DNA of 12,747 nucleotides from a virus (taxonomy: Duplodnaviria > Heunggongvirae > Uroviricota > Caudoviricetes), in IMG/VR virus record IMGVR_UViG_2531839474_000002, one strand, 5' to 3'. The position numbers and the translations under genes are program-made. Shown piece after piece: positions 2,470 to 12,747 of this stretch (positions are counted from its first letter, which is position 1; every line of letters starts with the position of its first letter). Below the pieces are notes generated by a model that saw only the letters and a program-made list of their open reading frames with translations, searched no databases and had not been told where the DNA came from.

Positions 2470-5400
2470 TCAACGAATACTGATGCCGGAAGCGGCTTTT
2501 TTGGTCACAATCACCGTACAGTCGGTGATATTGCCTGCCCCCTGATTCCCTTTCTGGAAAATCTTAAACTCCAGAGTGACGCTTCCCCTGCCACTCGGCA
2601 TATCAATAACCGCACTGTAGCTACCGGGAATGGCCCCTTTAGTTTCTCTGGATGCGATTAATACGCCGTTTTTGCGAACTTCAAAACCATAACCCGTGTA
2701 TCGCGTGCCTCCGGGGTTATTTCCGCTCCCCGGATCGGCATACGCTATACCGTTAAAAATAATGGGCGGAATAATAATCTGACGGTCAAAGTTATGATCA
2801 TCGCTGATGGTGACTGTAACCGTACCGTCTGGTGTTTCCGTGTTACCCCACGTACCGACTTTTTTCGGGAAGGCTTTTGATACAGCTTTAACGAAATCCC
2901 CTCTGACCTGGGTCGCCTCCAGCATGCCCTTAATCGTACAGTTCTGGTTAATCGTGACATTGTTGAGCGTCCCGGAGTTCGCATTCACGTTACCGCTGAT
3001 ATCAGCGTTTTTCGCCGTCAGCCGCCCGTCCGGTGTCAGGGAAAATGCCGGTGGATTGCCGCCGCTGGTGATGGTCGGGGCCGTCAGGCGCTTCAGGAAC
3101 ACGTCGTTCATGAATATCTGATCGCCCTGACCAACAAACATTGGTCGTGTGTTGCCATTAGACGGATCAATAAACGCAATACGGTTAGCGGCAACCAGAA
3201 ACTGGCTCAGCTTGCCTTCCGGCGTGTCCTCCATACTGAGGCCAATACCCGCGACATAATGTTTGCCGTCTTTGGTCTGCTCAATTTTGACAGCCCACAT
3301 GGCATTCCATTTATCGTTGACATCCTTCCACTCTTTCGAAAACTCCTCCAGTTTGCTGGCGTTATCCTCCGTCAGCTCGACTTTTTCCAGCAGCTCCTTG
3401 CCGAGATGAGATTCGGTTATCTTGCCTTTGAAAAAATCCAGGTAACCTTCCGCATCATCGCTCGCCCGACCGACGGCCTCCACGAACACCGATTTGCCAA
3501 CGGTGTTCACACTGCGAACGTAAAAATAATAATCATGGCCCGGTTTGATATTGATACTGGCGGCTATCCAGTACATCCCCGTACCAAGATAGCGGGCTGT
3601 GGTTTCAACCTGCCGGATATCGGCAATCCGCTTTTCCGAAAACCAGAACTCAAACTGTACCGTCGGGTCATAAACCGCAAGATGCGGCGTGGCGGTTATC
3701 TGAAAATAGCCCGGCGTCAGCTCAATCTGTGACGGCGCTGCCGGTGCGGCAATCCTGAACGATACCGACGCCGGGTCACCCTGCTGTCCCCACGCATTTA
3801 CCGCCCGGACTGTCAGCCTGTAGTTCCCCGGCGCCAGTTGCCTGAAACGATATTCGGTTTCCGTCGTCCGGGCCGTGCTGACCAGCCGCTCACTGCCGTC
3901 GTCTGCTGCCACAGTCAGACGAAGCATAAAGCTCACCCCCTTCACCACCTTCGGCGTGTCCCAGCGCGCCAGCACCTGATATTCCCCGCTGTCTGCCGAG
4001 ACTTCGGCGGTCAGGTGCTGCACCGCTGGCGGCGTGACACCATTCACCGTGCCGCTCTGGTCGCCGTCAAAGTGCGCACCGTTATCCACGATAGCCTCTT
4101 TTTCAGGCACATGCTGCACGGCAGTGACAGCGTACGTGCCGTCGTCGTTCTCACGGATACTCACGCAGCGGAACAGGCGCTGGCGCAGCGTCGGCAGCTT
4201 CAGCCCCCACACGCTGTATCCGGCAACGCCGTCAGGAACCCGGCTCACTTTCACCTGCACGCCGTCGGTGACGGACTGGACCTCCACGCTGACCGGACTC
4301 CCCGTCCCGTCGACCAGGCTTATCAGTGTGGTGCCGGAGGCTGGCAGCGTGATTTCACGGTCGAGCGTCAGCGTCCGGGTCTGGCTGTTCACCGCCAGCA
4401 CGCGACCACCGATGCTGATACCCGCATAGTCATCATCGCAGATTTCAATGACGTCTCCCGGCACATGGCGAAGCCCTTCTACACCCACGCTGAAGTCCAC
4501 GGTCTGCGTTTCCAGCAGTTCCGTTTTAATCAGCCACAGCCCGGCGCGGTGCGCCTGCCCCCGGCTGGTACAGCCAAAGGCATCCATCTTCGTGACGTTA
4601 CGACCGTAACGGGCAATGGCCTGCGTGTCTTCAACCAGCTCTGTCGCCGTCTCCCAGCCGTTGTCCGGGTCAATCCAGTTCACCTCAACGGCGTTATGGC
4701 GGTCCTTCAGGGCGCTGAAGCTGTAGCGGAACGGCGCGCCATCATCCGGCATCACCACATTACTGCGGTTATAGGTCCACACCTTATCCGACGGTCGGTC
4801 CTGCACGAACGTCAGCGTCTGCCCGTTCCATACCGGCATACAGCGCATCGCCGAGCAGAAATCACTGAGCACATCCCACGCCTTGCGCTGTGTGGTCAGG
4901 TACGCATTACAGGTGATGCGCGGCTCCGTGCCGCCAAAACCGTCCGGCACCGACTGATCGCAGTACTGGCCGATGACATACAGCGCCCATTTGTCCACAT
5001 CCGCCGCACCGAGACGCTTCCCCATGCCGTAGCGCGGATGGGTCAGCATATCCCACAGACACCAGGCCATATTGTTGCTGTATGCTGGCTTAAACGTTCC
5101 GTCCCAGATACCGCTGTATTGCCGCGTCTGCGGGTTATAGTTCGACGGCACCTGCAGAATGCGCCCGCGAAGATGATAATTACGGCTCACCTGCTGACTG
5201 CCGAACTGTTCCGAGTCCACCTGCACGCCGACCAGTGCCGTGTTCGGGTAGCACTGTTGCACATCGATGATTTCGGTGTATGACGACCAGAGCGTTTTGT
5301 TCTGCAGCTGGTCTGTGGTGCTGTCCGGCGTCATCCTGCGCATCCGGATATTAAACGGGCGCGGCGGCAGGTTACCCACCACCACCGAGGCCAGATACTG

Positions 5401-5883
5401 CGAGGTGGTTTTGCCCTTAATGGTGATGTCTTTTTCCGTCACCCAGCCACCATTACGTTGTATCTGAACCAGCAGGCGGACTTCCGACGGATTCCGGTCC
5501 CCCTTTGAAGTGGTTTCCACCAGTGCCTGCACACCGAAGGTAAAGCGCAGACGGTCGATGTTTGCCGATGTGATGGTCCGGGTAATCGGCGTGTCGTACT
5601 TCACCTCCGTACCCAGCACCGTCTCGGAGCCGGAGGATTCAAATCCCTCCGGCGGTGTCTGCTCCTGCTCACCTGCCCGGAACACCACCGTGACACCGGA
5701 GATATTGGTATTCCCCTCACTGTCCAGCACTGGCGTACTGTTCAGCAGCACACTTTTTAATCCATCCACCGGACCTTCAATCGGCCCTTCACTGATGGCG
5801 TCTATCACGCTCAGCAGCTGGGATGATTTCAGGTTGTCCTTCGCTTCGCGCGGGGTATGCCCCTTACTGCTGCCTTTACCCAT
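2470..5883 (-). CDS. J: Central tail fibre / host specificity protein J (1137 aa), with a divergent C-terminal receptor-binding region
   Basis: ATG at 5883 preceded by GAGAGGA, giving [34 protein letters not shown].... The first ~985 aa match recalled lambda gpJ closely; the last ~150 aa differ substantially although a few motifs remain (DMPSGRGSV, the terminal KK..GIS). The ORF-track start 15 codons upstream is rejected. Stop TGA at 2472..2470. Confidence 0.95.
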
Positions 5884-5904
5884 TCCTCTCGCTCCAGAAA
5901 CGAC

Positions 5905-5925
5905 AAAACCGCCCTGAGGCGGTTT
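5905..5925 (-). other. Stem-loop in the I-J intergenic spacer (AAAACCGCC CTGA GGCGGTTTT, plus-strand text)
   Basis: Perfect 5-bp GC stem (5909..5913 pairs with 5918..5922) flanked by an A-run and a T-run, inside the 60-nt spacer between the I stop and the J start. Function unknown. Confidence 0.3.
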
Positions 5926-5943
5926 CACATAAAACGTTTTTCA

Positions 5944-6615
5944 TCAACGACCAATCACCACAACCTGACCACCGTCCCCCTCGTCTGCCGTGCTGATCTC
6001 CTGAGAGACAACACGTGACCCCACGCGCATTTCACCGTACAGAACAGGCAGAACATTGCCCTGGGCAACCATATTGTCCAGTGACGAGAAATACGTGTTC
6101 TGCTTACCGTTATCCGTTGTTTGTGTGCGGGGAGTTCTGGGTTTAGGGGCCAGCATCTGGGCCACACCGCCAAGCACCATACTGGCACCGAGAGAAAACA
6201 GGATGCCGGTCATACCACCGGCACCAATGGCAGCCCCCCATGCTGCAAGGGTGGCTCCGGCGGTAAAGAATGATCCGGCAATGGCGGCTGCTCCCAGGAC
6301 AATCTGGAATACACCACCTGACTTGGCCCCGGCGACTCTGGGAACAATATGAATCACAGCGCCGTCAGGCAGAGCCTCATGTAACTGCGCCGTTAATCCG
6401 GACGTGCTGACATCCTGCCCGGCAATACGCACCTGATACCAGCCGTCGCTCAGTTTCTGACGAAACGCAGGGAGCTGTGTGGCCAGCGCCCGGATGGCTT
6501 CGGCCCCCGTTTTCACACGAAGGTCGATGCGGCGGCCAAATCGTTGCAAATCCCCGTAAAGGCAGATGCGTGCCATGCCCGGTGACGCCAGAGGGAGTGT
6601 GTGCGTCGCTGCCAT
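5944..6615 (-). CDS. I: Tail tip assembly protein I (223 aa)
   Basis: MAATHTLPLASPGMARICLYGDLQRFGRRIDLRVKTGAEAIRALATQLP... matches recalled lambda gpI, including the Gly/Ala-rich hydrophobic segment. ATG at 6615, stop TGA at 5946..5944, start inside the K 3' end. Confidence 0.95.
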   Translation of the reverse strand: MAATHTLPLASPGMARICLYGDLQRFGRRIDLRVKTGAEAIRALATQLPAFRQKLSDGWYQVRIAGQDVSTSGLTAQLHEALPDGAVIHIVPRVAGAKSGGVFQIVLGAAAIAGSFFTAGATLAAWGAAIGAGGMTGILFSLGASMVLGGVAQMLAPKPRTPRTQTTDNGKQNTYFSSLDNMVAQGNVLPVLYGEMRVGSRVVSQEISTADEGDGGQVVVIGR

Positions 6616-7256
6616 TTGTCGGTATACCTCTCTCGTTTGCTCAGTTGTTCAGGAATATGGTGCAGCAGCTCGCCGTCACCACAGTAAATGGCGGCATGAT
6701 TCGGCACCGATGAACCAAAACAGCACAGCAGCACATCGCCCGGCTGCGCCGCTGACAACGGCACCTGATACAGCCCTGTGGCCTCCAGATTATCCAGATA
6801 GAGATTCTGACCGTTACGCCACCAGTCATCCTCGCGGTGAAAATCCGGCATCTCAATCCCCGCCAGATGGTAAGCATCCCGGAACAGCGTGTAACAGTCC
6901 GTCACCCCGTGCTCAAAGCGCCGCCCGGTAAGATGCGGCACACAGCGGAACTTGTGAATCGCCCCCCGGCAGACCAGCCACCACGGCAAATCACTCTGCA
7001 CCTGCAGCCGCCGGTCGGCCTCACTCAGCCAGGGCAGACCACCGGGGTGGCTGTGGACCAGCGCCACAATCTCACCCTGCATCTCTGCCTGCAGCCAGTC
7101 CTCCGGCGACATACGGAAATACGCCTCCGGCTCACCGGAAATATTCACGCCGGGAAAATATCTTTCCCCCTCCGGCGTTCTCACCACGAAGCCGCACGAC
7201 TCCGCTGGCGCACATCGCCGGGCGTGCGCCAGAATCGCTGATTCTGTCTTTGTCAT
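6513..7256 (-). CDS. K: Tail tip assembly protein K, long form (247 aa), with an N-terminal JAB/MPN (JAMM) domain and a C-terminal NlpC/P60-like domain
   Basis: ATG at 7256 lies 5 nt after the L stop. The JAMM signature H-x-H-x7-S-x2-D is present as HSHPGGLPWLSEAD, with a candidate catalytic Glu in AESCGFVV. The C-terminal half has Cys/His residues compatible with a papain-like NlpC/P60 fold. The canonical lambda K annotation (199 aa, as I recall) would correspond to an internal ATG at 7112. The 3' end overlaps I by about 100 nt, as in lambda. Confidence 0.85.
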   Translation of the reverse strand: MTKTESAILAHARRCAPAESCGFVVRTPEGERYFPGVNISGEPEAYFRMSPEDWLQAEMQGEIVALVHSHPGGLPWLSEADRRLQVQSDLPWWLVCRGAIHKFRCVPHLTGRRFEHGVTDCYTLFRDAYHLAGIEMPDFHREDDWWRNGQNLYLDNLEATGLYQVPLSAAQPGDVLLCCFGSSVPNHAAIYCGDGELLHHIPEQLSKRERYTDKWQRRTHSLWRHRAWHASAFTGICNDLAAASTFV

Positions 7257-7261
7257 GGGAT

Positions 7262-7960
7262 TTACTGCGAAAGTTTGTTAATGGAAAGGAAGCCGCCAAA
7301 GTTGCCGACGTTATTGCGGAACTTACAACCGCTCAGGCATTTGCTGCATTTATCCTTCGTGATATCGGACGTCGGCTGGTCATATTCATCCGCGACCGCC
7401 GGACCGTGATAACCGCACTCACCGCCGCGATAGGTCCAGGTGCAGGTGTTGGCCAGCATGATACGTCCCGGAAAAACAGCGCCGTCCGTTTCCGTCGGCG
7501 TGGACAGTACAAAGGAGGCACTGACCGCGCTCAGTTCGCTGCACTGCTCGATGCGCCAGCAACTGATCACCTCCTGCTCCGGATCGGCGTCACTGTTTCC
7601 GTTGACGAAGTTCACCGCATCCAGAAAACGGGCGTAAACCTTACGCCGGACCACCGTTCCGCCGACCAGACTCTGCAGATCTTCCGCCATCCCGGTGACC
7701 ATACCGTACAGGTTAGAAACCGTCAGCGTGGGGCGCGTACTGGTGCCTTTGCCATTCAGTTCAAAACCACTCCCCTGAATGGGATACGGCTGATACTGTC
7801 GCCTCTGCCAGGTGACCGGCTCACCTTTTTCGTTCTGCTCATTACAGAAAAAATAACGTTCTCCACCGACCTCTGTCAGGTCGATTTCCCAGAGCACCAC
7901 GCTGGCCGACTGCTCCGCACGGGTGCATTCATTCAGTGTTTCCTGCCGGATATCCTGCAT
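7262..7960 (-). CDS. L: Tail tip protein L (232 aa), with a C-terminal cysteine cluster
   Basis: MQDIRQETLNECTRAEQSASVVLWEIDLTEVGGERYFFCNEQ... matches recalled lambda gpL. The C-terminal region carries clustered Cys residues (CTWTYRGGECGYHG ... KDKCSKCLSGCKF), consistent with the Fe-S cluster reported for the gpL family. Confidence 0.95.
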   Translation of the reverse strand: MQDIRQETLNECTRAEQSASVVLWEIDLTEVGGERYFFCNEQNEKGEPVTWQRRQYQPYPIQGSGFELNGKGTSTRPTLTVSNLYGMVTGMAEDLQSLVGGTVVRRKVYARFLDAVNFVNGNSDADPEQEVISCWRIEQCSELSAVSASFVLSTPTETDGAVFPGRIMLANTCTWTYRGGECGYHGPAVADEYDQPTSDITKDKCSKCLSGCKFRNNVGNFGGFLSINKLSQ

Positions 7961-8289
7961 CAGTTCACCACCTGTTCAAACTCTGCGCTGAACTCAACAC
8001 GCAGCATACTGACCCGCGACGACCATTTTGCGCAGGTCACCTTTATCTGCCGCCACTCATAAGGCGGCGTCCACAGAAAGGACTTCCAGCCCCCGTGCTC
8101 TTCCAGAAACGACTCCAGTACCGTGGCCTCCCAACGGGGAACAGAAAGCGTCACGCTGTACGTTTTCAGGTTGGCATTCAGCCCGGCAGGCGCTCGCTGG
8201 GAATAGCCATCACCAAAGCGCACCTTTCTTACAGAAGGGACCGAAGCCACATCCATACCGGGTTTCACTTTCCAGCGGAAGGTTTTCAT
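7960..8289 (-). CDS. M: Tail tip assembly protein M (109 aa)
   Basis: MKTFRWKVKPGMDVASVPSVRKVRFGDGYSQRAPAGLNANLKTYSVTLSVPRWEA... matches recalled lambda gpM. Start ATG overlaps the H stop, and its stop TGA shares one nucleotide with the L ATG (TGATG). Confidence 0.95.
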   Translation of the reverse strand: MKTFRWKVKPGMDVASVPSVRKVRFGDGYSQRAPAGLNANLKTYSVTLSVPRWEATVLESFLEEHGGWKSFLWTPPYEWRQIKVTCAKWSSRVSMLRVEFSAEFEQVVN

Positions 8290-10847
8290 CGTCCACCTCC
8301 GGAGAACAGACCACCATCACGCATCTGCCCCGGAACAACATCAAGGGCACCCTTACGGGCCACGTCATAAACCGCCTTCAGAGCAGCCGGACCTATCTGA
8401 CCGTTCGTGCCGTCGTTGTTAATCACCACATGGTTATTCTGCTCAAACGTCCCGGACGCCTGCGACCGGCTGTCCGCCATGCTGCCCGGTGTACCGACAT
8501 AACCGCCGGTGGCATAGCCGCGCATCAGCCGGTAAAGATTTCCTACGCCAATCCGGCTGGTTGCCTCCTTCGTGAAGACAAACTCACCACGGTGAACAAT
8601 CCCCGCTGGCTCATATTTGCCGCCGGTTCCCGTAAATCCTCCGGTTGCAAAATGGAATTTCGCCGCAGCGGCCTGAATGGCTGTACCGCCTGACGCGGAT
8701 GCGCCGCCACCAACAGCCCCGCCAATGGCGCTGCCGATACTCCCGACAATCCCCACCATTGCCTGCTTAAGCAGAATTTCTGTCATCATGGACAGCACGG
8801 AACGGGTGAAGCTGCGCCAGTTCTGCTCACTGCCGGTCAGCATCGCCGCCATATTCTGTGCAATACCATCAAAGGTCTGCGTGGCTGCACTTTTTACCTG
8901 CGACATACTGTCCGTGGCGCTCTCTTCCCACTCACTCCAGCCTGACCTGAGGCCTGCCATCCAGCTCCCGCGAAGCTGGTCTTCAGCTGCCCAGGTCTTT
9001 TTCTGCTCTGACATGACGTTATTCAGCGCCAGAGGATTATCGCCATACTGTTCCTTCAGGCGCTGTTCCATGGCTTCCCGCGCTGCCTGCCGGTCAGTCA
9101 GCCCCCGGTTTTTTGCATCAATGGCGGCCCGTTTTGCCCGTTGTTGCTGTGCGAATTTATCCGCCTGCTGCGCCAGCGCGTTCAGGTGCTCCTGATAGGT
9201 GACCTTGTCGCCAAGTACAGCCAGCTGGCGTTTGTACTCCAGCGTCTCGTCTTTATGCGCCAGCAGGGATTTCTCCTGTGCGGACAGCTGGCGACGTTGT
9301 GCCGCCTCCTCCAGTACCGCGAACTGACTTTCTGCCTTCCACAAATCCCGGCGCTGCTGGCTGATTTTCTCATTTGCTCCGGCATGCTTCTCCAGCGTCC
9401 GGAGTTCAGCCTGAAGCGTCAGCAGGGCAGCATGAGCACTGTCTTCCTGACGATCGCCCGCAGACACCTTCACGCCGGACTGTTTCGGCTTTTTCAGCGT
9501 CGCTTCATAGTCCTTTTTCGCCGCCGCCATCAGCGTGTTGTAATCTGCCTGCAGAATTTTCCCGTCCTTCAGTGCCTTGTTCAGTTCTTCCTGACGGGCG
9601 GTATATTTCTCCAGCGGCGTCTGCAGCCGTTCGTAAGCCTTCTGCGCCTCTTCGGTATATTTCAGCCGTGACGCTTCAGTATCGCTCTGCTGCTGCGCAT
9701 TTTTGTCCTGTTGACTCTGCTGTTCAGCCTTCTTTCTGGCGGCTTCAAGCGCAAGACGGGCCTTTTCACGATCATCCCAGTAACGCGCCCGCGCTTCATC
9801 GTTAACAAAATAATCATCCTTGCGCAGACTCCAGATGTCGTCCGCTTTCTTAAACGCAGCCTCTGCCTTAATCAGCATCTCCTGCGCGGTATCAGGACGA
9901 CCAATATCCAGCACCGCATCCCACATGGATTTGAATGCCCGCGCTGTCCTGTCTGCCCAGGTCTCCAGCGTACCCATGTTCTCTTTCAGGCGGCGGGTCT
10001 GGTCATCAAACCCTTTCGTCGCGGCCTCGTTCGCCGCCTGCAATGCCCCGGCCTCGTCTCCGGAACGCTGCAGCTGTGCAACATACGCAATCTGCTCCGC
10101 CGTCACGTTATGGAACTGGCGTGCCATCGCTGTCAGCCCTGACGTCGGGTCTGTGGTCAGCTTCCCGAAGGCTTCAGCGACCTTGTCCACCTCCACGCCG
10201 GATGCAGAGGAGAAACGCGCCACACTCTGGCTGATGGATGCAATCTGAGCCTCACCGCTTACCCCCGCCTTAACCAGTGCGCTGAGTGACTCGCTGGTCT
10301 GGTTAAACGTCAGCCCTGCCGCCTGCCCGGCTCTGGACAGGACCAGCATACGATCTGCCGTCAGCCCCGACTGATTGCCGGAAAGGACCAGCGTTTTGTT
10401 GAAATCGGACAGGGTTGAGTTGCCCTGATACCAGGCATACGCCAGCGCACCGGTCGCCACCGCCAGCGAGGTGGCCCCCACCATCGGCAGGGTGATCGCA
10501 CCGGCAAGCCCCCTGAACATGGGGATCATCCCGCCGAAGGAGTCCTTAACCTGACCACCCTGTTGCAGCAGGATCAGCCACGGACTTTGCCCGCCTGCAA
10601 GCTGCGTGGCCACGTCGGTGAACTGTGCAGGCAGCATACGCATGGCGGCTTTATACTGCCCGACGGAAATCCCCGCTTTCTGTGCAGCCAGCGCCTGTCG
10701 GCTCAGCGACTGTTCAACGACTGCCGCTGTTTTTTTCGCATCACTTTCCGTACCGGAAAAATGACGCCTGACTCTGGCCATCTGCTCGTCAAATCTGGCC
10801 GCATCCAGACTCAAATCAACGACCAGATCGCCTACCGGTTCAGCCAT
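8286..10847 (-). CDS. H: Tail tape measure protein H (853 aa)
   Basis: MAEPVGDLVVDLSLDAARFDEQMARVRRHF... with the same 853-aa length as lambda gpH, a helical Ala/Gln/Glu/Lys/Arg-rich central region and a Gly-rich C-terminal region. ATG at 10847; stop TGA at 8288..8286 overlaps the M start (ATGA). Confidence 0.97.
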   Translation of the reverse strand: MAEPVGDLVVDLSLDAARFDEQMARVRRHFSGTESDAKKTAAVVEQSLSRQALAAQKAGISVGQYKAAMRMLPAQFTDVATQLAGGQSPWLILLQQGGQVKDSFGGMIPMFRGLAGAITLPMVGATSLAVATGALAYAWYQGNSTLSDFNKTLVLSGNQSGLTADRMLVLSRAGQAAGLTFNQTSESLSALVKAGVSGEAQIASISQSVARFSSASGVEVDKVAEAFGKLTTDPTSGLTAMARQFHNVTAEQIAYVAQLQRSGDEAGALQAANEAATKGFDDQTRRLKENMGTLETWADRTARAFKSMWDAVLDIGRPDTAQEMLIKAEAAFKKADDIWSLRKDDYFVNDEARARYWDDREKARLALEAARKKAEQQSQQDKNAQQQSDTEASRLKYTEEAQKAYERLQTPLEKYTARQEELNKALKDGKILQADYNTLMAAAKKDYEATLKKPKQSGVKVSAGDRQEDSAHAALLTLQAELRTLEKHAGANEKISQQRRDLWKAESQFAVLEEAAQRRQLSAQEKSLLAHKDETLEYKRQLAVLGDKVTYQEHLNALAQQADKFAQQQRAKRAAIDAKNRGLTDRQAAREAMEQRLKEQYGDNPLALNNVMSEQKKTWAAEDQLRGSWMAGLRSGWSEWEESATDSMSQVKSAATQTFDGIAQNMAAMLTGSEQNWRSFTRSVLSMMTEILLKQAMVGIVGSIGSAIGGAVGGGASASGGTAIQAAAAKFHFATGGFTGTGGKYEPAGIVHRGEFVFTKEATSRIGVGNLYRLMRGYATGGYVGTPGSMADSRSQASGTFEQNNHVVINNDGTNGQIGPAALKAVYDVARKGALDVVPGQMRDGGLFSGGGR

Positions 10848-11280
10848 ACCGGACTCCTCCTGCGATCCCTTCTGATACTGTCATCAGCATTACGTCATCC
10901 TCCGTCATGTCCGCCACATCCGGGGAAGTAGGGATAACTTCATTCCCGTCCGGGCCAAAGCGGACACCTCCGGCAAGCCCTGCCGCTTTCTGCATCAGCA
11001 CATCATCTTCAGGCTCTTCGTCAGCCTCGCGCCGGTTCAGCAGACTGAAATCCAGCGGATGCATATCCGGATCGCTGAAAAACAGGCTGAGCACGGTGTA
11101 TGTCAGCCCGGAAAAGTGCATATCCAGCAGAACATCATGAAAATAATGGGTACTGTAAAAGCGGTGCCAGTCGGCATACTCCGTGGATGACATCCCGGCA
11201 AGCATGGCGCGCCAGTCGGGTCGCCCCATCTCACGCGCCAGTTTCAGGGCAAAACTCAGCTCACCGTCGAACACTTTCCC
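10840..11280 (-). CDS. T: T segment of the gpGT fusion tail assembly protein, expressed by -1 frameshift from G (no independent start expected)
   Basis: The -1 frame ORF (VFDGELSFALKLAREMGRPDWRAMLAGMSSTEYADW...GGVRYG) is open from the slippery site to a TGA at 10842..10840 and matches recalled lambda gpT. The ORF-track start is a GTG that coincides with the slip site. The 3' end overlaps the H start by 8 nt. Confidence 0.85.
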   Translation of the reverse strand, partial: GKVFDGELSFALKLAREMGRPDWRAMLAGMSSTEYADWHRFYSTHYFHDVLLDMHFSGLTYTVLSLFFSDPDMHPLDFSLLNRREADEEPEDDVLMQKAAGLAGGVRFGPDGNEVIPTSPDVADMTEDDVMLMTVSEGIAGGVRYG

Positions 11281-11678
11281 GCAGAAACAGGCTCTGTAGG
11301 CCCGGCGTCATCTGCCTGTTCAGGGGCATTATTCACCACAAACTCAGACATTCCGGACAGACGTAACACCACGTTTTCAGCCTGAGCAATTGCCTCCGTG
11401 GGCCAGGTGGTAAGCACTTCCTGCTCAATCTGCGTAATGGCTTCATTCATGGACGGCAGCTTTGTCTTCTGCGGATGGTTATGCCACAGAGACATCGCCA
11501 CCAGAAACGCCCCGCCTCTGATAAGATCCTCTACAGACACCTGCAGGTTGCCACTGGATTCAGCCTTTTTTTCCTGCTCTTTCAACCAGGCGAGATGCTC
11601 AATACGCTGCAGGGCTGACAGTTCAGAAAGCGTGACGGTCACGCCGTTATATTCAAATGATTCGGTTTTCAGGAACAT
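11256..11678 (-). CDS. G: Tail assembly chaperone G (140 aa)
   Basis: MFLKTESFEYNGVTVTLSELSALQRIEHL...VSAGKCSTVS matches recalled lambda gpG; ATG at 11678, stop TGA at 11258..11256. It contains the slippery heptamer near its 3' end. Confidence 0.95.
   Translation of the reverse strand: MFLKTESFEYNGVTVTLSELSALQRIEHLAWLKEQEKKAESSGNLQVSVEDLIRGGAFLVAMSLWHNHPQKTKLPSMNEAITQIEQEVLTTWPTEAIAQAENVVLRLSGMSEFVVNNAPEQADDAGPTEPVSAGKCSTVS
11274..11280 (-). other. Programmed -1 ribosomal frameshift slippery heptamer G GGA AAG (G-T frameshift site)
   Basis: On the minus strand the heptamer GGGAAAG occupies 11280..11274, and in the G reading frame it is phased as G GGA AAG (codons Gly134 Lys135). The -1 frame continues open as GGG AAA GTG into the T ORF. 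This is the arrangement established for lambda gpG/gpGT. Confidence 0.85.
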
Positions 11679-11693
11679 CGCTGACTCTCTGGA

Positions 11694-12434
11694 TTAACTG
11701 GCGGTGACGGTGATTTCTGCAACCGCAGCAAACTCACCATTACTGGATACAACCGGAATGTTGACCTTGCCTGCAGCAACGCCGTTCACGGTGATGGTCA
11801 TACCACTGACCGACACGGTGGCTTTTGTTTTATCCGCAGACACCGCACGGAAGCTCTTGTCGGTTACACCTTCCGGCTGGAATGCCACGGTCAGCGTGGT
11901 GCTCTGCCCTTTCACTACGGAAGCACTGGCTGGCGTTACCGTCATGCCGGTTGCTGCCGTCACCGTACTGCGATCTTCAGCCATCGACGGGCGTCCCACA
12001 TTGGTGACCTTCACCGTGCGGGTGATCACTTCCTTCGCCGTCACCGCTTTACCGATACTGCTGACCCAGCCACGGAACACATCGACCGTGCCGTTCGGGA
12101 AGCGGATTTTATAGGCACGGGTATCACCTTCATTAAACCACGCCAGCAGCGCCTGCTGCCCCTGCTCTCCGGGCATCCACGCCAGCGTGAAGCTGGTATC
12201 TCCGGCAGATTTCTGCCCCTGCCCGGTCGCAGTCCAGTCCGCATCTTCATCATCGAGATAGCTGTCGTCATAGGACTCAGCGGTCAGTTCGCCGGGTGTC
12301 AGGTCTTTAACTTTTGCCAGACGCGACCAGTCAACGTCTGAAAGCGGGTTCGCATAAGGGTCACCGTTCCCCTTATAAACCCACAGTGTGGTCCCGGCAC
12401 CTTTCACCGGCATTGTTGGATTTGGTACAGGCAT
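11694..12434 (-). CDS. V: Major tail tube protein V (246 aa)
   Basis: ATG at 12434 preceded by GAGGA, which overlaps the U stop. The protein [22 protein letters not shown]...EITVTAS matches recalled lambda gpV along its length, including the C-terminal Ig-like region. The ORF-track start 10 codons upstream ([10 protein letters not shown]) is rejected. Confidence 0.95.
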
Positions 12435-12441
12435 AGCGTCC

Positions 12442-12747
12442 TCACATTTCATAGGTAATGACATACGTCAGATCGGCTGAACTCCACAGGCCCGCATCAT
12501 CGTCGCGCCGGTAGTCATAGCCACTGGCCACCATACTGGTGATCAAATCTGACAGTGCCGGGATATCGCTCATCACCGGATAAATCCGGGACTCCATCCA
12601 CGAATCCAGCTCTGAATCCGGCACCTGAGCAGGCAGGAAAACTTCAATATGCAGCTCCGCCTGCCAGGTATCGCTGTCCAGCTCTTCGCCCGTGTATTCA
12701 GCGCCGGTGAGATAAACGGCAATTGCCGGAAAATCCGCCTCATCAAA
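12442..12747 (-). CDS. U: Tail terminator protein U, C-terminal 101 codons only (N-terminus lies beyond the window end)
   Basis: The frame is open from the window edge (translation begins [101 protein letters not shown]) and matches my recollection of the lambda gpU C-terminus. Stop TGA at 12444..12442. The ORF-track start at 12624 is a GTG inside the gene, not the true start. Confidence 0.9.

Follow-up and report, generated by a model that had tools for sequence, protein, structure and literature searches.

Gene K of the tail cluster analyzed here is very likely to encode a product of 247 aa, started at the ATG that follows the L stop codon and composed of a JAB and an NlpC/P60 domain, with the 199-aa K protein of the lambda reference genome resulting from one missing G in that sequence. 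The window, that is, the whole stretch of DNA that was analyzed, consists of 12,747 nucleotides from a virus of the Caudoviricetes (IMG/VR record IMGVR_UViG_2531839474_000002). The features of the window are summarized in Table 1.

Results

The K gene and its neighborhood

The window contains a cluster of lambda-type tail genes, all on the minus strand, in which K is located between L and I. The order V-G-T-H-M-L-K-I-J-lom is shared with lambda and phage 434, and the K of the window is the same gene as lambda gpK and 434 K. The K region shows 97% DNA identity to phage 434 K and to many lambda relatives. The N-terminal region of K in lambda itself is 99.7% identical to that of many prophages. 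The match to PHROG 30 spans residues 1–247. The position between L and I and the high identity to lambda K assign the protein to lambda gpK. Both its length of 247 aa and its JAB plus NlpC/P60 architecture are those of most annotated relatives, from which it differs by few substitutions, such as K3, R26, and G36. The lambda reference entry differs from the window in that one G is absent and the first 48 codons are lost. At the other end of the gene, the 3' end of K overlaps gene I by 103 nt.

Table 1. Features of the lambda-type tail cluster and of gene K in the window.
Feature	Position	Strand	Evidence
Gene V	11694–12464	minus	Pfam
Gene G	11256–11678	minus	Pfam
Gene T	10840–11274	minus	Pfam
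Gene H, 853 aa	8286–10847	minus	Position and length
Gene M	7960–8289	minus	Pfam
Gene L, 232 aa, stop codon at 7262–7264	7262–7960	minus	Pfam Phage_tail_L
Gene K, 247-aa CDS, tail tip assembly protein K	6513–7256	minus	ORF list, Pfam, PHROG 30
Codons 1–48 of K, N-terminal stretch missing from the 199-aa annotation	7113–7256	minus	Prok-JAB match, conservation, AlphaFold
JAB/MPN+ domain, residues 3–98	6963–7250	minus	Pfam PF14464, Foldseek
E19 codon GAG, equivalent of the JAMM general-base/water-binding Glu	7200–7202	minus	Conservation, alignments
GGAGG in codons 43–45, 11 nt upstream of the Met49 ATG	7124–7128	minus	Sequence; Shine-Dalgarno-like
G (C on the plus strand) missing after 14266 of J02459/NC_001416	7122	minus	Alignments, whole-genome comparison, transgene variant
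Met49, internal ATG, annotated start of the 199-aa lambda K	7110–7112	minus	Alignment to NC_001416
H68-S-H70-x7-S78-x2-D81, JAMM zinc-site motif	7014–7055	minus	Direct reading
NlpC/P60 (C40) papain-like peptidase domain, residues 111–224	6585–6926	minus	Pfam PF00877, Foldseek, profiles
Gene I, 223 aa, N-terminal ubiquitin-like domain	5944–6615	minus	Pfam Lambda_tail_I, residues 14–97
Gene J	within 2470–5928	minus	Pfam
Lom homologue	1801–2400	minus	Pfam
Collagen-repeat side tail fibre	428–1747	minus	Pfam

The K ORF consists of 247 codons, and its ATG (7254–7256) is found 5 nt beyond the stop codon of L. The nearest upstream in-frame stop is a TAA 9 codons 5' of this ATG. Because this TAA is reached without another start codon, 247 aa corresponds to the maximal K ORF. 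The junction between L and K, TAAATCCCATG, contains no Shine-Dalgarno string before the long-form ATG. Because of this, the translation of K is probably driven by termination-reinitiation coupling to L, as judged from the junction sequence. The neighborhood of K was inspected in three distant relatives (33–38% identity). Two of the three have the order M-L-K and an overlap of K with the stop of L, which measures 4 nt in one and 47 nt in the other. In the third, K starts 11 nt past a cut upstream gene, for which there is no Pfam call.

A start at the internal Met49 leaves exactly 199 aa. The GGAGG in front of it is annotated as a ribosome-binding site in lambda imm21 (OM418625), and the resemblance of this string to a Shine-Dalgarno sequence explains why the short start looks plausible.

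Coding evidence for codons 1–48

Across the six frames of the window (57% GC), 36% of the 48-codon windows are free of stops, and therefore the open frame alone is not significant. The case for coding thus rests on protein-level evidence, and the open frame is not counted. The 48 N-terminal residues alone match positions 3–39 of the Prok-JAB model with an E-value of 1.3e-4. The 199-aa form matches only positions 63–103 of the same model, and its score of 22.9 bits does not reach the cut-off of 25.

With HMMER, 1.84 billion cluster representatives were searched, and 2672 matches were returned. Full-length homologues with 35–50% identity align from query residues 2–15, near their own N-termini. 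Conservation was analyzed in an alignment of 89 full-length homologues, whose identity ranges from 32 to 58%. The upstream stretch is well kept in this alignment: P17 is seen in 82, E19 in 88, C21 in 83, G22 in 89, N38 in 89, and F47 in 84 of the 89 sequences. Met occupies the Met49 column in only 13 of them, and Ile in 53. In 85 of 88 homologues, the N-terminus reaches 0–7 residues further out than the Met1 column of the window. Among related loci of IMG/VR, 80 were fetched, and all 79 that could be scored have at least 247 open codons. Substitutions in 74 distinct close relatives point in the same direction, as the variable sites of codons 1–48 are distributed 5/2/20 over the first, second, and third codon positions. 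Codons 1–48 are genuinely coding and belong to the JAB domain.

The original prediction, which had proposed the upstream ATG as the start, is borne out at this level. From the ATG 5 nt beyond the stop of L, the frame is open throughout 6513–7256, and conservation in the 89 homologues begins near the upstream ATG and not at the internal Met49. In-frame stops upstream of Met49 in close relatives, which the prediction had named as evidence against itself, were seen in none of the 79 scored IMG/VR loci.

The JAB/MPN+ domain

The match of gpK to the Pfam model Prok-JAB (PF14464) covers residues 3–98 and model positions 3–103 of 114, with 50.4 bits against a cut-off of 25. The residues of the JAMM motif are nearly invariant: H68, H70, and D81 are each present in 89 of 89 homologues, and S78 in 84, with Thr in the remaining five. 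In the AlphaFold2 model of gpK, which was built on the homologue alignment and reaches a pLDDT of 97 and a pTM of 0.91, the upstream codons encode the helix 3–15 and the strands 21–27 and 30–36 of the JAB fold. A Foldseek comparison of the first half against the PDB retrieved PfJAMM1 (5LD9/5LDA), 2KKS, AMSH, Rpn11, and CSN5 with a probability of 1.00. In sequence and profile alignments, E19 corresponds to the Glu of "(N/V)E(A/V)CG" in 2KKS and in P. furiosus JAMM1. The equivalents in AfJAMM, which we take to be E22, H67, H69, and D80, have a spacing almost identical to that of gpK.

The motif, the profile, and the MPN fold of the predicted structure are all found in the protein. Judged from its sequence and model, gpK is a predicted zinc metalloprotease that carries a complete JAMM/MPN+ site. 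What had been read from the letters alone holds here: the signature H68-S69-H70-x7-S78-x2-D81 lies at the residues first given as about 68–81, and the octapeptide AESCGFVV at residues 18–25 includes E19 and belongs to the long form only. As had been argued, the 199-aa form would lack this Glu; a start at Met49 removes E19 and, with it, over half of the JAB domain.

The domain shares its fold with PfJAMM1 (5LD9, and 5LDA with SAMP2) and with DSY2949 (2KKS), with rmsd values of 2.5–2.6 Å over 106–109 columns (2.6 Å over 109 columns for 5LD9). The motif E...HSH-x7-S-x2-D is common to gpK and the prokaryotic JAMM/MPN+ proteins, including PfJAMM1, desampylase, and 2KKS. Another likeness to the prokaryotic JAMM/MPN+ enzymes that cleave ubiquitin-like proteins is that a ubiquitin-like partner is encoded next door. 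In contrast to these enzymes, gpK carries its JAB domain in fusion with NlpC/P60. The substrate proposed for it also differs: it is a ubiquitin-like (Ubl) domain that a normal peptide linker connects with the structural portion of gpI, and no isopeptide conjugate. In a comparison with the haloarchaeal desampylase equivalog NF041370, gpK scored 27.8 bits against a cut-off of 130. Being so far under the cut-off, gpK is a distant relative and no member of the desampylase family.

The NlpC/P60 domain

The Pfam model PF00877 matches gpK over its entire length (positions 1–105 of 105) with 49.2 bits against a cut-off of 23. C121 (6894–6896) and H187 are conserved in 88 of 89 homologues, and H199 in all 89. 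Foldseek and profile matches of the second half of gpK include MepS/Spr, LytE, and CwlO, and the Cys and both His residues of gpK are aligned with those of Spr. Both the whole-domain profile and the conservation of the Cys-His-His residues thus place this half among the NlpC/P60 proteins, and gpK appears from sequence and model to have a complete Cys-His-His site of this family. The papain-like fold and the conserved Cys-His-His are common to gpK, E. coli MepS/Spr, and B. subtilis LytE/CwlO, and the spacing from His to His is 12 in both gpK and Spr. Unlike these cell-wall endopeptidases, gpK is a tail assembly factor and is absent from virions. The proposal that K is a complete two-domain protein of the JAB plus NlpC/P60 type agrees with Pfam, conservation, AlphaFold2, and Foldseek.

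A missing G in the lambda reference sequence

Where the lambda reference J02459/NC_001416 reads GGAGGC-TATTTCCGTATG, the sequence of the window, phage 434, 2B8, and other lambdas is GGAGGCGTATTTCCGTATG. In the reference nothing is lost from the upstream ATG or the first 45 codons (MTQTESAILAHARRCAPAESCGFVVSTPEGERYFPCVNISGEPEA), but they lie out of frame with the rest of K. The K frame is closed in the reference by a stop 6 codons before the annotated ATG, and a mechanical ORF search in K of NC_001416 gives only 199 codons. The 199-aa call in the reference is thus attributable to the missing base, which closes the frame upstream of Met49.

The G is present in PV340536, KT232076, lambda imm21 (OM418625), imm434, h434 imm21, DE3, HK629, and HK630. 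It is also present in LC730321 (Lambda_AGU, 48,503 bp), where the whole-genome comparison with J02459 shows an insertion after 14266. The variants reported for the lambda-gt10 transgene of MutaMouse include both 14266 C>CG and 137 AG>A (Table 5 in PMC6760142). In a search of 5,426 complete E. coli genomes, of which 4,328 matched, no copy identical to the reference version was seen among the matches listed; the best of those listed was 99.7% identical and had 302 nt against the 301 nt of the query. Thousands of E. coli prophages appear to have the G.

Outside J02459/NC_001416, the reference state at 14266 was found only in OR974322 and OR474059. The latter is flagged UNVERIFIED. OR974322 is labeled as an isolate from chicken swabs, has coordinates identical to those of the reference, carries the Sam7 change, and has a garbled 3' end. 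The record probably represents control DNA for which the reference served as the assembly template.

According to Feiss et al. 2022, many laboratory lambdas share nine differences from the published sequence (PMC9119081). We found no explicit published statement of a sequence error in K, and the closest are this sentence and the variant table of PMC6760142. The missing G is most likely an error of the 1982 sequence. The G+C-rich stretch GCCGGAGGC at the gap could compress on gels. It is far less probable that this essential gene acquired a private mutation.

The heptamer GGGAAAG in K codons 30–32 (7162–7168) was considered as a site of programmed frameshifting and was rejected. Its phase does not allow a −1 slip in the K frame, it precedes the gap by about 40 nt, and its two copies in the window compare with 1.98 expected by chance.

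Annotation of K in public records

K is annotated with 247 aa in phage 434, in RefSeq 2B8, in lambda PV340536, and in the prophage of E. coli J53, where PGAP named it "C40 family peptidase". A length of 199 aa is given in the lambda reference J02459/NC_001416 as "K (tail component;199)", in OR974322, and in lambda imm21, in which the frame is open and the GGAGG is marked as a ribosome-binding site. KT232076 has 211 aa. Among the protein clusters listed, those represented by a 247-aa protein comprise about 51,000 members and those represented by a 199-aa protein about 11,000, numbers that are rough since members may differ in length from their representative. Because of this ratio of about 51,000 to about 11,000, the long form can be considered already the majority annotation. 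The short form persists by inheritance from the lambda record.

The original prediction had also held that the start of K is under-called in lambda-type annotations. This holds only in part. In the lambda reference the frame is closed by the missing G, and most annotations already have 247 aa. True under-calling is limited to some G-bearing records, as the 199-aa start was copied in imm21 and a 211-aa start is used in KT232076.

Discussion

Alternative explanations

Lambda has precedents for one gene with two products, C/Nu3 and S107/S105. K could likewise give a 247-aa protein coupled to L and a 199-aa protein with only NlpC/P60, for which the internal GGAGG would direct initiation at Met49, and the two could differ in their roles in tail tip assembly. 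The presence of GGAGG 11 nt upstream of the Met49 ATG, against a long start with no Shine-Dalgarno string, is consistent with this, as is the marking of GGAGG as a ribosome-binding site by the curators of lambda imm21. The optimal Shine-Dalgarno spacing for initiation in E. coli is shorter than 11 nt, however, so the spacing here is above the optimum, and the string falls in the codons Pro43-Glu44-Xaa45 and may exist for coding reasons. Versions of K with only NlpC/P60 are known in some phages (Iyer et al., PMC1779556), but Met49 itself is shared by just 13 of the 89 homologues (53 have Ile), and its codon context is not conserved in distant relatives either. Because Met49 is so rare, two products are unlikely as a conserved feature, and we consider their production from K improbable. 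It is harder still to accept that the 199-aa annotation is simply right and that the 144 nt upstream of Met49 go untranslated, as a spacer or a decayed remnant. The annotation of J02459, the Shine-Dalgarno-like GGAGG, and the roughly 11,000 database members of the 199-aa clusters could be cited in its favor. Such a protein would lose E19 and positions 1–62 of the JAB model and fall below the Pfam cut-off. Conservation of the upstream protein down to 32% identity, the bias of substitutions to third positions, and a frame without a stop in each of the 79 loci that were scored out of 80 also argue against it, and the upstream codons of lambda itself are intact save for the single-base gap. We give this explanation hardly any credence.

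It might also be speculated that the missing G was real in the cI857 S7 stock that was sequenced, in which case K would be made as two polypeptides or through a +1 frameshift, or the JAB domain would be dispensable. OR974322 shows the reference state at 14266, and since the Sam7 change (G45352A) is present in it, this record derives from commercial cI857 Sam7 DNA. Moreover, the upstream ATG in the reference opens an ORF of 76 codons, of which the first 45 are intact. However, the reference-identical coordinates and the artefactual 3' end of OR974322 suggest a reference-guided consensus, in which indels are easily missed. The G is found in every other lambda derivative examined (imm21, imm434, the h434 hybrids, DE3, lambda-gt10, PV340536, KT232076, and Lambda_AGU). 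The G-bearing strains also share a 1-nt difference at 138, which suggests errors of the 1982 sequence, and there is no slippery motif at the site. A real mutation in that stock is thus very improbable, slightly less so than a 199-aa product alone. An uninterrupted 247-aa K, shortened in the reference by what is most likely a sequencing error, best accounts for the gene in the window and in lambda.

Proposed function of the 247-aa product

Under the preferred reading of a single 247-aa product, ribosomes that have just terminated on L would start K at the ATG 5 nt further on. Residues 3–98 would then constitute the JAMM/MPN+ domain, in which E19 is predicted to activate the water and H68, H70, and D81 to be the zinc ligands, along with S78. 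Residues 111–224 would be the papain-like cysteine peptidase domain with C121, H187, and H199 as its putative active-site residues. The most likely role of the K JAB domain is to detach the ubiquitin-like N-terminal domain from gpI as the tail tip is assembled, and the cut would be expected behind the Gly at the end of the Ubl domain, around residues 95–101 of gpI. What is left of gpI, its C-terminal part, would then remain in the virion, and gpK would not.

Much of this picture is earlier work. Iyer, Burroughs and Aravind (2006) described TAPK as JAB plus NlpC/P60 and TAPI as having a Ubl domain that ends in a conserved Gly, and they proposed the release of the Ubl domain by JAB (PMC1779556). 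A meeting report of 2025 summarizes the talk of Alan Davidson, according to which gpK cleaves the Ubl domain of gpI (PMC12908700); the statement is that of a conference summary. Mass spectrometry of virions found gpI and did not find gpK (PMC10721106). The observation of the ORF and its reading as JAB plus NlpC/P60 are correct, and both were already known, the architecture having been published in 2006. The link between the 199-aa lambda K and the missing G at 14266 may deserve a curation note; it corrects a database entry and is no discovery.

Implications

Lambda is the reference phage, and other annotations and analyses continue to take over its 199-aa K entry. When HHpred was applied to the 199-aa K in a 2020 review, only the peptidase domain was reported (PMC7291167). 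Cloning, modeling, or mutating "lambda K" from the reference leads to a protein that has lost the catalytic Glu and half of its JAB domain. In practice, the present analysis is of value as a correction of the lambda entry, in which a G would be added after 14266 and the start moved to 14132. With its full length, K makes the proposed processing of the Ubl domain of gpI by the K JAB domain chemically possible, an idea that, like its test, belongs to earlier work.

Alternative Start Calls for Gene I and the Overlap with K

Records disagree on where gene I begins, and their calls give three forms. The ATG of the longest form is preceded, 11 nt upstream, by GAGAGAGG. The Pfam domain Lambda_tail_I spans residues 14–97 of this form (positions 2–83 of the 83-position model). 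Because of this placement, the two shorter calls would truncate the ubiquitin-like domain. The short starts of gene I are the mirror image of the problem with K, which is annotated in the lambda reference as 199 aa, without its first 48 codons and most of the JAB domain.

Genes I and K are read in different frames where they overlap. Conservation is poor at the end of K: over its final 21 residues (227–247) the mean gap fraction is 0.60 among the 89 aligned full-length homologues. The K tail thus seems to be a tolerated read-through across the start of I.

Features of the tail gene cluster in the window (all coordinates are those of the window)
Feature	Length	Position	Strand	Remark
Gene I	 	5944–6615	(-)	
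Gene I, lambda and 434	223 aa	ATG at 6615	(-)	
Gene I, RefSeq 2B8	201 aa			
Gene I, PGAP call for E. coli J53	190 aa			GTG start overlapping the K stop
I/K overlap	103 nt	6513–6615	(-)	
J ORF, mechanical call	1152 aa	2470–5928	(-)	GTG start 15 codons upstream of MGKGSSKG
Lom/Ail outer-membrane protein homologue	199 aa	1801–2400	(-)	downstream of J
Side tail fibre	439 aa	428–1747	(-)	downstream of J
GGGAAAG at the G/T junction		11274–11280	(-)	
GGGAAAG in K		7162–7168	(-)	codons 30–32

GGGAAAG Heptamers

GGGAAAG is seen twice in the window, where 1.98 occurrences are expected by chance. The copy at the G/T junction lies where lambda has its known G-T -1 frameshift site. The copy within K is out of phase with the K frame for -1 slippage.

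Comparison of Lambda Records

Lambda_AGU (LC730321.1, L088) differs from the lambda reference J02459.1 (L090) at 15 sites. In the orf-401/orf-314 (stf) region, one of them is an additional C following position 20832; this is how Ur-lambda reads, in which the side tail fibre gene is intact. Another is a 1-nt deletion at 138. As this change is common to Lambda_AGU and the lambda-gt10 transgene (137 AG>A), the state of J02459 at 138 is probably another reference error.

OR974322.1 (L089) is deposited in GenBank as a lambda "isolate", and its source is stated as chicken cloacal swabs from South Africa. Its coordinates are those of J02459 throughout the record, and it departs from that sequence only around 45037–45041, at the Sam7 position (45352), at 46312 and in a garbled 3' end. 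The record gives the impression of lambda DNA that served as a sequencing control and was assembled against the reference, rather than of a phage from the environment.

J and the Side Tail Fibre

Lambda J begins with MGKGSSKG, and the same sequence is present inside the J ORF of the window. In its layout the side tail fibre does not resemble lambda's own stf: it carries the prophage tail fibre N-terminal domain and collagen triple-helix repeats, and it ends in Phage_fiber_C. Counted from the Met of MGKGSSKG, J would be 1137 aa in the window phage versus 1132 aa in lambda, which would make the central tail fibre slightly different in the window phage.
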